A DNA stretch of 64,000 bases. Source: Escherichia coli (GTDB lineage: Bacteria; Pseudomonadota; Gammaproteobacteria; Enterobacterales; Enterobacteriaceae). The DNA lies in the NCBI RefSeq assembly GCF_030013595.1, contig NZ_CP122768.1. One strand, written 5' to 3'. This document shows positions 24,801 through 27,800 of the stretch, piece after piece. Within the stretch, counting starts at the first letter, position 1; each line of letters begins with the position of its first letter. Position numbers: made by a program.

Positions 24801-27800
24801 CCCGCGCATCACTTCTACAATGCCTGACGGCGGCGAAATATCACCCGCGCTACTGGATAAGTGCAGGGTAGAAGGGAAGGCAAAGCTGAAGACTACTGCG
24901 GCCAGAGCAGCAGAGAAGGTGCCCAGCAGATAGAGGAACAAAATAGGGCGGATATTGGTTTTCTGCCCGTGCTGGTGGTTAGCAATAGATGCCATTACCA
25001 GCATCAACACCAGGATGGGGGCAACGGCTTTCAGTGCGCCGACGAACAAAGTACCTAACAGACCAACAGCTTCCGCCGCGGGTTTTGAGATCCATGCCAG
25101 AAGAATCCCCAGAACAAGGCCGACCAGGATTTGTTTTACCAGGCTGCCATGAGCCAGACGCCGGAATAGCCCCGGTGAACGTTGCGTAGTCATTTTTCGA
25201 TCCTTTCATTGTGTTGTCGCACATCCCTGGTGCGTTCTGTCGACGCATCTTTCAGGATGTAACAAAGTGTTTGCAAGGTCGAGTATAAGGAAAGTTACAG
25301 CTTCGGGAAGCGAAAAATGCTGGATTTTAAAGAGAGGTCATATTTTGCAACTTAATGGTTACATTTATTTGACATAAACAGAGGGAAGGACTGGCTACTA
25401 AGGCTGATTAGATAACATATGGGCAAAACTATTTGGAATATGAGAACGGTTGCGCTCTTTTAATGTGCTATGCCATATAAAGTCACTGGCGCAGGGAGCG
25501 CGCAGGGGGCGGCCAATCGCCGCCGCCCCCTGCACCCCCAGGCTCTGGCGAACAAAATCGCCGCTGCGCGGTTCCCTCAGCTTATCCCTTGCGGCTACCG
25601 GGTCGGGCGCAAGGGAACGTCCCTGTAAGATGCCCCCTCGCCGCGCATCCATGCGCGTCGCCCCGGCCTCCAGGGAACGCTTCGGCGATTTTGACGCCAC
25701 CAACACCCGTGCGGTCTTTTTGTAAAGAGCTATAAGCCGATTACATAATTAATAGCTCACCTTTGTCTGGAATGAGTTATCTCTAGTAATGGCTTAATAT
25801 ACAGCGAATCATTCTCCCCGCTGCTTATCATGCCGATAATTCACCCAAGCGTTGATAATAAACGTCATCACCAGAATGCCAAACACCACGCCCAGCGAAA
25901 CGGCGATCGGAATATGGTAGAAGTCAACAATCAGCATCTTGATACCGATAAACACCAGAATCACCGCCAGACCATATTTGAGCATCGAGAAACGTTCTGC
26001 TACGCCCGCCAGCAGGAAATACATCGCACGCAGGCCGAGGATCGCAAACAGGTTTGAGGTCAGCACAATGAACGGGTCAGTGGTAACAGCGAAGATAGCT
26101 GGAATGCTATCCACGGCGAAAATCACGTCGCTCAATTCCACCAGAATCAGCACCAGCATCAGCGGTGTGGCATACAGCAAGCCATTCTTGCGCACAAAGA
26201 AATGCTCGTTGTCGATGGTGTCGGTCATACGCAAATGACCGCGCAACCAGCGCACCAGCGGCTTGTCGCCAATGCCTGATTCATCTTCATGGGCCAGCGC
26301 CATCTTCACGCCGGTAAACAGCAGGAAGGCACCGAAGATATACAGGATCCAGTCGAACTGCGAAATCAGCCAGCTGCCAGTGAAGATCATGATGGTACGC
26401 AGAACAATCGCCCCGAGCACGCCATACACCAGCACGCGGCGTTGTAATGCCGCCGGAACAGAGAAATAGCTGAACAACATCAGCCAGACAAAGACGTTAT
26501 CGACCGCCAGCGATTTCTCAATCAGATAACCCGTGAGAAAGGCCAGTGCCTGTGGATCGGCAACGGCGCGACCTTCGGTTTGCACCAGATACCACCAGAA
26601 AGCGGCGTTAAACAGTAACGACAGCGTCACCCAGACCAGCGACCAGGCCGCAGCCTGTTTCATGGTCATGGCATGTGCCCCACGACGCCCCTGCAACAAC
26701 AGGTCGATAGCCAGCATAATGGCGACAACAACAGCGAATCCGCCCCATAGCAACGGCGTGCCGACAGTATTCATAGAAGTTCCTTACACATAAAAAAAAC
26801 GGCCAACGTCGGAAGACGTCAGCCGCTGCTTTTTATGCATAGACCTCGCCTTCCGGCAAGGTCTCACTTACAACAAAAAAGGAATACGTCTGCGTATTCC
26901 TTTCGGGTTGCCCGGTGACCGGATGTGGTTTTGCACACATCGTAATGACGATCGACCGGCAATGAAGTTACTCCCCTTTGCAGGTAACAAAGTATGACAG
27001 ACCATTCAGTCAGTCAATGGTCTGTTACATGCCTTTTACACTGTTTTACTTTGGCAATTATAGTTTTACTCTATCTGCCGGAAAAATCACCCCAGTCTGG
27101 CGGCGGATCTCGGTCAGCAGTTTGGCGGTGATGCGACTGACCGTCAGCCATGGATGATCCACCAGATGCTCATCCACCAGTTCAGCAAACAGCTCTGCTT
27201 CGTAGAGCATGGTATTAATATGCTGCGGTTGGGTGAGATCCTGCATCTGGCTGCCACGCGGAACAAAGCAAACTTTCTGGCATTCAGACAGTTTTTCAAT
27301 CACCAGCGATCCCGCTTCGCCCTGAATCTCGCTTGCCAGGACAGAATCGCTCACTTTTGAGTGCTGCAACGTAACGCTGAAATCACCGTAATCCATCACC
27401 ACCACGCCGTGGGCATCCACACCGCTTGCCAGCAAACTGGCGGTTGCCTGCACGCTTTTCGGTTCACCGAATAATGCCACCGCCGACGCCAGGCAGTAAA
27501 AGCCGATATCCATAATTGAACCGTTAGAGAATGCCGGATTAAAGGTGTTGGGATTCTCACCATCCAGGTAACGTTGATACCGCGAGGAATACTGGCAATA
27601 GTTGAAAAAGACTTTACGCAGTTTGCCGACTTTCGGCAGCGCCTGGCGTAACAGATGAAAGTTCGGCAGGCTGGCGGTTTTAAATGCCTCAAACAGCACC
27701 ACCTGATTTTCCCGCGCACAGGCAATGGCGGCATCCACTTCCGCCAGATTCGATGCCAGCGGCTTCTCGCAAATCACATGAATTTTGTGGCTAAGGAAAA

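Follow-up and report, generated by a model that had tools for sequence, protein, structure and literature searches.

The question raised by this locus is what kind of element occupies the guanine-plus-cytosine (GC)-rich, hairpin-dense spacer between the genes sstT and alx in the window, that is, the whole 64,000-nucleotide (nt) stretch of an Escherichia coli genome (contig NZ_CP122768.1, assembly GCF_030013595.1) analysed here. The comparisons showed that it is a single copy from a family of non-coding repeats dispersed through Enterobacteriaceae, and that the single-strand fold common to the copies is maintained by selection. We hypothesize that the folded molecule is likely an RNA bearing twin loops on which a protein docks, a reading to which we give a probability of about one half. 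As a dispensable intergenic repeat the element is ordinary; it is unusual as a large covarying structure that is unannotated even in K-12.

Both alx (25809-26774) and sstT (23949-25193) lie on the minus strand, and the repeat copy starts about 90-100 nt past the alx stop codon, between the two genes and co-oriented with alx. Measured in 100-nt steps, the GC content is 0.65-0.71 over 25450-25699 and 0.36-0.44 on either flank, which confirms the much higher GC content that an earlier note, made from the sequence of this locus, had reported. The perfect 12-base-pair (bp) stem that it described is present (GCAGGGGGCGGC at 25502-25513 and GCCGCCCCCTGC at 25522-25533, with 8 nt between the arms), as are its second stem, of 8 bp (perfect arms at 25515-25522 and 25683-25690), and its palindromes (a near-palindrome at 25639-25660). 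Perfect 9-bp arms (25585-25593 and 25608-25616) and a 16-nt long-range pair (25553-25568 and 25678-25693) were found in addition. The block of about 230 bp delimited earlier at 25488-25715 is real, but homology places the element at about 25449-25718: the hidden Markov model (HMM) of the family matched 25710-25449 on the minus strand with 218.6 bits (nhmmer), and paralogues align across 25449-25718. The extra 40 nt or so on the low-coordinate side are the AT-rich loop of the last hairpin, beyond the GC-rich block, and weaker similarity continues for 25-30 nt past each end of the unit of about 270 nt. The minus strand folds with a predicted energy of -143.6 kcal/mol (z = -4.45; none of 200 dinucleotide shuffles as good), against -130.2 kcal/mol for the plus strand. 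The region of the element is 100% identical in E. coli ST2747, and no second copy was found inside the 64-kb window by blastn or nhmmer.

The same 270 nt or so lie at other loci and in other genera, so that the element is neither unique nor without conservation, and the suggestion that it belongs to one of the rarer interspersed repeat families was confirmed by the search for other copies, which revealed a low-copy dispersed family. With megablast, matches were obtained in 5425 of the 5426 complete E. coli genomes, at a median of three places each; blastn gave a median of four places per E. coli genome and a maximum of 10, with four in K-12 and six in ST2747. The E. coli loci identified with copies are alx-sstT, yohP-dusC, aqpZ-lysO and putP-efeU; the K-12 copies include one at about 2,229,122-2,229,385 and those at aqpZ-lysO and putP-efeU. 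A more divergent subtype stands at yegH-asmA in one divergent E. coli genome, and copies at least 95% identical to this subtype, counted irrespective of locus, occur in about 1,400 E. coli genomes. In a blastn search of records filed as plasmids, several of which are in fact whole chromosomes, one 5.4-Mb K. pneumoniae record held 13 places, and copies were also found in K. aerogenes and K. variicola. A cross-species scan of one genome per species, using a pattern that fixes only the junction and the loop letters of hairpin 1 (see below), returned at least 100 stretches, about 90 of those listed being family members, from Escherichia, Klebsiella, Raoultella, Enterobacter, Leclercia, Silvania, Atlantibacter, Pseudescherichia, Pseudocitrobacter and unnamed Enterobacteriaceae. 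Assemblies labelled as other phyla gave a few matches, in three metagenome-assembled genomes and a 583-bp Bacillus contig; their identity to the E. coli query is 75-95%, and they look like contaminating enterobacterial contigs. A search for a phage origin found no match among 50,697 phage records; in IMG/VR only four contigs contained the pattern, as family copies, and the one examined is the host rpoD-mug interval. None of the RefSeq records examined annotates a repeat copy as a feature, and the element is not mentioned in the one paper examined from the Breaker-lab surveys of GC-rich intergenic regions. In the rpoD-mug contig (L118:7402-8163), an open reading frame (ORF) of 253 amino acids (aa) with the string FMDDILLSSDD adjoins the copy, and by eye this string looks like a reverse-transcriptase motif.

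The covariance analysis that had been proposed was carried out on 52 diverse copies, with the window copy as the first row, aligned by MAFFT without reference to structure, and compensatory changes in this alignment back the fold. RNAalifold predicted 49 pairs, 32 of them with compensatory double changes, and heavier covariation weighting of the same alignment gave a structure of 76 pairs. In the latter, paired cells make up 89.7%, a share that falls to 36.9-44.3% once the partners are slid by 1-3 columns; 50 of the 76 pairs are changed on both sides, against 22-30 in the slid controls; and the covariation score is 0.362, against 0.047-0.094, with 0 of 500 column shuffles reaching the observed values, a comparison with slid and shuffled controls that is somewhat generous because the structure was derived from the same alignment, though its margin is still large. 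The features of the element are as follows.

25449..25718, minus strand (the folded, or sense, strand): conserved repeat unit of about 270 nt, placed by nhmmer, the alignment and the paralogues.
25540..25705, minus strand: core domain, in which a long stem closes a three-way junction that bears two hairpins; the TwoAYGGAY-like part, with covariation in helices 1-10.
25678..25693, minus strand: 5' arm of the closing stem, sense CAAAAUCGCCGAAGCG, from a 16-nt inverted repeat that is 88% complementary.
25553..25568, minus strand: 3' arm of the closing stem, sense CGCAGCGGCGAUUUUG; helix 10, 99% paired.
25561-25571, minus strand: small hairpin CCGCGCAGCGG (CCGC-GCA-GCGG), overlapping the 3' arm of the closing stem.
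25639..25660, minus strand: hairpin 1, with loop CAUGGAUG at 25646-25653 and a stem (helix 7) that switches between CG, GC and AU.
25605..25637, minus strand: hairpin 2, with loop CAGGGACG at 25618-25625; helices 8 and 9.
25502..25533, minus strand: hairpin 4, formed by the perfect GC stem of 12 bp; pairing in helix 11 reaches 91.8%, and 9 of its 11 pairs have changes on both sides.
25452..25501, minus strand: hairpin 5, terminal, with arms GCGCUC/GAGCGC, a variable AT-rich loop and the conserved end ...GCGCAAC.

Read from 5' to 3', GGUGGCG.. and AAAAUCGCCG of the closing stem pair with CGGCGAUUUU and ..CGCCAG; its helices 2 and 3 are 97-99% paired, with 8 of 13 pairs changed on both sides, and columns 160 and 172 of helix 10 take the pair types CG, GC and UA. 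The three-way junction, GGCCGGGGC ... GACCCGG, bears hairpins 1 and 2, and an internal loop, AAGGGAUAAG, lies between this part and the 12-bp GC hairpin. Hairpin 5 (helix 12) is 92.8% paired, with changes on both sides in 5 of 8 pairs, and its arms read CGUUCAC / GUGAACG in other subfamilies. Across the 52 copies 35 columns are invariant, and 11 of them make up the two loops (C..GGA.G and CA.GGA.G): C66, G69, G70, A71 and G73 in hairpin 1, and C94, A95, G97, G98, A99 and G101 in hairpin 2, are each identical in 52 of 52 copies, and the stems beneath both loops switch among CG, GC and AU. Loop 1 is AUGGAU and loop 2 is A(G/U/-)GGA(C/U), and the two GGA triplets are about 29 nt apart; hairpin 2 reads UUACAGGGAUGU in the K-12 copy and ACAGGAUGU in some others, and inspection by eye showed about three more GGA motifs within the core of the window copy. 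G-U cells number 139 in the structure and A-C cells 68, an excess that modestly favours the minus strand as the one that folds. The pattern of substitution shows a specific single-strand fold, with two invariant, equivalent loops, that is maintained by selection.

The folded molecule is probably an RNA, which would be read from the minus strand of the window; RNA is favoured over DNA because of the many-helix junction architecture, the G-U excess and the resemblance to the TwoAYGGAY motif. The structured RNA named as one possibility in the earlier note is therefore borne out as to a single-strand fold supported by covariation, its RNA nature being what we infer. At alx-sstT this RNA would arise by read-through from alx, since the promoter and terminator scan detected no intrinsic terminator in the stretch that separates the alx stop codon from the element. 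Together the identical loops may then offer a docking site to an RNA-binding protein that acts as a dimer; sequence-specific recognition by such a symmetric partner seems to explain best why two identical invariant loops sit on covarying stems.

The only Rfam family that matched the element is RF01731 (TwoAYGGAY), which aligned at full length (model positions 1-168) to 25540-25705 on the minus strand (cmscan). The permissive Rfam scans covered the window region, five E. coli loci and three Klebsiella loci, and the whole window searched at Rfam gathering scores gave nothing at the element. The architecture of RF01731, with two AYGGAY-type loops on adjacent hairpins, a three-way junction and a long P1 stem, is found in the repeat family. 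According to the motif description of Weinberg et al. (2010; PMC2864571), TwoAYGGAY has two AYGGAY loops and a P1 stem that is often very long, and occurs in human gut metagenomes, Clostridia and gamma-proteobacteria; that description gives it no function, and its discoverers judged it "probably" an RNA. The Psychromonas sequences in the alignment of that paper have the loops ACAUGGAUGU and ACAGGGACGU, the G variant of loop 2 included, as in the enterobacterial family, and TwoAYGGAY resembles the family also in being multi-copy within a genome (Psychromonas) and in having no function in that description. The likeness extends to the long closing stem, the three-way junction, the two adjacent hairpins and the terminal loops of the form A-N-GGA-Y. 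Unlike TwoAYGGAY, however, the enterobacterial family is GC-rich, is confined to Enterobacteriaceae in the sample, and has two further conserved 3' hairpins, so that it measures about 270 nt against the 168 positions of the model.

TwoAYGGAY and CsrB stand together in the Rfam clan CL00106 (the clan was confirmed by a scan of the K-12 csrB locus). The CsrB repeat is CAGGA(U/C/A)G, and CsrB carries about 18-22 GGA sites; the selection consensus of CsrA is RUACARGGAUGU, with GGA in a hairpin loop, and the CsrA dimer bridges two sites 10-63 nt apart. As in CsrB, CsrC and the Rsm small RNAs, the repeat family displays GGA in hairpin loops, and its CA(N)GGA(Y)G resembles the CsrB repeat. CsrA is put forward, tentatively, as the foremost candidate for the partner, since the loops match the repeat of CsrB as well as the selection consensus of CsrA. 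The family differs from CsrB/CsrC and Rsm in having two invariant sites rather than 9-22, and from CsrB/CsrC in having no recognisable promoter or terminator and in being multi-copy and polymorphic, not a single conserved gene.

The genomic setting of the copies bears on whether the fold acts as RNA or as DNA. A census of neighbour orientation, based on crude ORF calls, comprised 82 copies with a neighbour on each side: the flanking genes converge in 48 cases and diverge in five, and these counts, together with a 14:15 split of orientation among the copies between same-direction genes, indicate that copies collect at gene 3' ends without orientation preference. By their map positions, four E. 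coli copies divide 2 to 2 relative to the direction of replication. Head-to-head doublets were found at the following loci.

L075:2347-2970, L025:1868-2429, L033:6653-7198 and L098:6808-7387; also L045, L064, L082, L084, L085, L089 and L100: doublets of two copies in head-to-head orientation.

Such doublets, each a standard copy with a strongly diverged one, occur at no fewer than 13 loci in at least six genera, their 5' ends facing each other 25-150 nt apart. They create the inverted outer ends GTTCCGTTCAC...GTGAACGGAAC, and in the Atlantibacter doublet GAACGGAAC is present three times at each outer end. The diverged partner retains the same fold and loops, and supplies much of the covariation signal. 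Two copies in K. pneumoniae (L007:1068-1321 and 1505-1758) have the same orientation, are 437 nt apart and share a common 5' flank, which indicates a local tandem duplication of element plus flank.

These observations are also what a purely selfish DNA repeat would produce, in which the structure would fold in single-stranded DNA during replication or repair and be read by a trans-acting enzyme, such as a HUH or RAYT-type transposase, as an oversized analogue of REP or REPIN with no RNA role. This is the main rival, and we hold it possible but doubtful. It would account for the multiple copies, for their variable presence, orientation and integrity, for the bias toward convergent neighbours (48 of 82, against five divergent) with no strand preference, for doublets like those of REP, for the lack of a promoter or terminator in the scan, and for the proximity of other repeats, namely BoxC in 24 copies and, by eye, a REP-like sequence after the yegH-asmA copy in L034. 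It has more difficulty with the fold itself, because a many-helix three-way junction of about 270 nt is far more elaborate than the known transposase-recognised hairpins. An inverted-repeat search of the window copy found no terminal inverted repeat joining both ends of the unit, no associated transposase gene was found, and a 168-aa ORF between inverted copies (L063) has no transposase or other significant domain. The empty result in the phage collection and the few IMG/VR contigs, of which the one checked is a host region, likewise speak against a selfish element, as does the lack of a clean pair of filled and empty sites. No such pair was obtained at alx-sstT, aqpZ-lysO or yegH-asmA, where whole cassettes, orientation or internal deletions differ, and therefore neither a target site nor its duplication is demonstrable.

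The comparison with K-12 at sstT-alx, also proposed in the earlier note, makes this variation explicit. K-12 has a BoxC-like sequence in place of the repeat, and alignment of three alleles delimited the following region.

25376..25805, no strand assigned: allele-specific cassette, consisting of the element flanked by about 87 nt (5' side) and about 73 nt (3' side), from the three-way alignment.

Over this cassette of about 430 nt K-12, UTI89 and the window strain differ, and the shared flanks stop just past the alx stop codon and resume at ATGTCAAA...; K-12 carries two BoxC-like units (L011:2047-2444), UTI89 carries one (L010:343-665) and the window strain carries the repeat with private flanks. 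The idea of a strain-specific insertion is thus right in that the locus copy is present in 1659 of 5426 E. coli genomes, about 69% having no copy at the site, but what differs is a whole-cassette swap, not a simple insertion. The alx-sstT spacer is a cassette hot spot. Other loci vary in comparable ways. At aqpZ-lysO, the ST540 allele (L003) has the element co-oriented with aqpZ and is without the terminator hairpin of K-12; K-12 (L113) has a terminator hairpin and then the element in the opposite orientation, with different private flanks; and internal deletions in strains 2A (L114) and AVS0787 (L115) have removed the junction and hairpins, or hairpins 1 and 2. At yohP-dusC the K-12 and AZ161 copies have opposite orientations. 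The window copy is therefore a dispensable cassette, of a family whose members are gained, lost, inverted, partly deleted and paired. The yegH-asmA spacer is hypervariable, with 468-1148 nt across strains (L034:8450-9310, H159-H181), and a RelE/ParE toxin-antitoxin pair is present in some of its alleles; yegH and alx are both annotated as TerC-family proteins, a likeness that is probably coincidental.

Several results weigh against the hypothesis of a selected RNA with twin docking loops. The 76-pair structure came from the alignment that was used to test it, and single-stranded DNA could adopt the same fold, G-T wobble included. On the sense strand, the scan showed nothing resembling a promoter or terminator next to the element, and pairs of copies as close as about 38 nt leave no room for two outward promoters. 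The 29 of 82 copies between same-direction genes divide into 14 co-oriented and 15 anti-oriented, which argues against a role tied to the upstream mRNA. The RF01731 alignments, both of full length, fell short of the gathering score of 43, with 29.9 bits for the window copy (E = 0.048, in a search of 2.3 kb) and 30.9 bits for the K-12 yohP-dusC paralogue; three Klebsiella copies gave no RF01731 match at E <= 1, and the family HMM (nhmmer) found in three Psychromonas TwoAYGGAY sequences 16 nt of one loop, with E = 0.3. Given this sub-threshold score and the lack of sequence-level relatedness, the family is treated here as a TwoAYGGAY-like variant and not as a member. The tables of Potts et al. 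(2017) mark dusC, ybjE/lysO and efeU' as "No" in four columns, which are read here, by assumption and without the header, as calls from crosslinking and immunoprecipitation sequencing (CLIP-seq); these marks, on genes that adjoin the K-12 copies, are weak evidence, since expression of the genes may be low and reads from repeats are often discarded.

The same results bear on two narrower explanations that also invoke RNA. The first is a small-RNA gene that stands alone, has a promoter and a terminator of its own and acts, as CsrB and CsrC do, as a sponge for CsrA. The resemblance of the two invariant loops to the CsrB repeat, the fold like that of TwoAYGGAY, which shares a clan with CsrB, and the three or so extra GGA motifs of the window-copy core would fit such a gene. 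We nevertheless consider it improbable, as nothing like a promoter or terminator was found on the sense strand, paralogues show little conservation in their 5' flanks, paired copies come too near each other, two invariant GGA sites compare with the 18-22 or so of CsrB, and the neighbouring genes have the "No" marks in the presumed CLIP-seq columns of the tables cited above. The second is an element that acts in cis at the 3' end of the alx transcript, as a terminator, stabiliser or insulator, or one that regulates sstT from upstream. For it speak the co-orientation with alx at a short distance from the stop codon with no terminator between, the terminator-like hairpin followed by a T run that K-12 has at the equivalent place in alx-sstT (by eye, in the alignment), and the ST540 allele of aqpZ, which runs straight into the element where K-12 has its terminator hairpin. 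This explanation is, if anything, still less probable, because no hairpin of the element is followed by a U-tract, the family has no orientation bias and the same loci carry either orientation, about 69% of E. coli genomes do without a copy at this site, and the conserved stretch upstream of sstT, the presumed place of its promoter, is not part of the cassette.

The relation to described enterobacterial repeats was considered for each family named earlier and for some others. BoxC, one of the families first suggested, does not apply to the window copy, since the CCCTCTCCC...GGGAGAGGG / GGGTGAGGG tract motif is absent from this copy and from its flanks, and a BoxC-like sequence occupies the site in K-12 and UTI89 instead. 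BoxC (PIT) is about 56 bp long, with a purine/pyrimidine-tract composition in the account given in PMC4666352. Like the family it is a GC-rich intergenic repeat, but the core fold shares nothing with it. A BoxC-like module, CCCTCACCC-N3-CCCTCTCCC-loop-GGGAGAGGG, does follow 24 copies at a fixed +21/22 nt past the 3' end of the element, in Enterobacter, Silvania and Leclercia (L031, L046, L054, L055, L088, L032, L060, L095, L099 and others), and BoxC may be a 3' module of the repeat family or a remnant of it.

The other family first suggested was RSA, which is about 152 bp long and has about six copies in K-12. Under this name, or BEE95, the passage of PMC3751351 that cites Bachellier and Hofnung (1996, Mol Microbiol 19:1385) lists dispersed enterobacterial intergenic elements. 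The window family answers to this description in being dispersed, intergenic, confined to enterobacteria and low in copy number; its core domain of about 150-165 nt and its four places in K-12 (blastn) are not an exact match in length or copy number to the figures for RSA. That the two are the same family is plausible, with the odds about even. The statement that the element is not a canonical REP held, as no REP-type (naRNA4) Rfam match falls within it; it has no sequence similarity to REP/BIME, of the GCCGGATG...CATCCGGC palindrome type, and naRNA4 matched only separate sequences at other loci. The family shares with REP/BIME and REPIN doublets an extragenic position at gene 3' ends, compensatory changes in stems and inverted pairs, and with REP/BIME a presence that varies between strains and the lack of a coding ORF. 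It is unlike REP in its length of about 270 nt with many helices and in its 1-13 copies, against a single hairpin of about 35-40 nt with hundreds per genome, and to our knowledge no cognate RAYT transposase exists for it. ERIC, compared here by length only, is much shorter (about 127 bp). By the standard of miniature inverted-repeat transposable elements, the single unit has no terminal inverted repeats, and the doublets do have inverted outer ends.

The earlier note had stated that the element contains no ORF. Literally this is incorrect, because a 102-aa ORF on the minus strand (25398-25706) and a 91-aa ORF on the plus strand overlap it; as a statement about coding it holds, since neither ORF has a Pfam match and the frame is not kept. 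A small protein gene corresponding to the 102-aa ORF would agree with the existence of that frame, with a "hypothetical protein" annotated at the locus in one RefSeq record (H69) and with another annotated beside the putP-efeU copy on a plasmid. It is effectively refuted, however: the 102-aa frame is open in one of the 51 other copies, the net insertions and deletions across these copies spread evenly over the three phases (16, 18 and 17), and substitutions keep base pairs rather than codons.

The element has a concrete, testable link to the orphan TwoAYGGAY motif and to the Csr system. K-12, the most closely annotated bacterial genome, has at least three to four copies with neither a RefSeq feature nor an Rfam family, and with a covariance model of the family, hundreds of intergenic regions of Enterobacteriaceae that are now blank could be labelled. 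Should the fold work as RNA and bind CsrA, it would be the first functional lead for TwoAYGGAY, would add a dispersed, strain-variable layer to the enteric Csr network and would explain the swapping of cassettes at some intergenic hot spots; even as a selfish element and nothing more, it stands out as a structured repeat of unusual elaborateness. The boldest form of the hypothesis, which we regard as speculative and unlikely to hold in full, could be described as "CsrB in pieces": mobile, dispersed RNA modules, each clamping one CsrA dimer through its twin GGA loops, would land at operon 3' ends, sometimes as divergent pairs or with a BoxC 3' module, and would couple the levels of arbitrary transcripts to the pool of free CsrA. 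If true, it would give a function to the orphan TwoAYGGAY motif and an origin to BoxC.

Two minor observations concern other parts of the window. The alx 5' leader (26775-27057), which we take to be the pH- and manganese-responsive RNA element SraF/PRE, gave no Rfam family match even at E <= 1. On the minus strand, Rfam matches above the gathering score correspond to C4 antisense RNA (55613-55700), isrK (55749-55828) and a tRNA (58716-58788), a combination that suggests a P2/P4-type prophage or island beside a tRNA gene.

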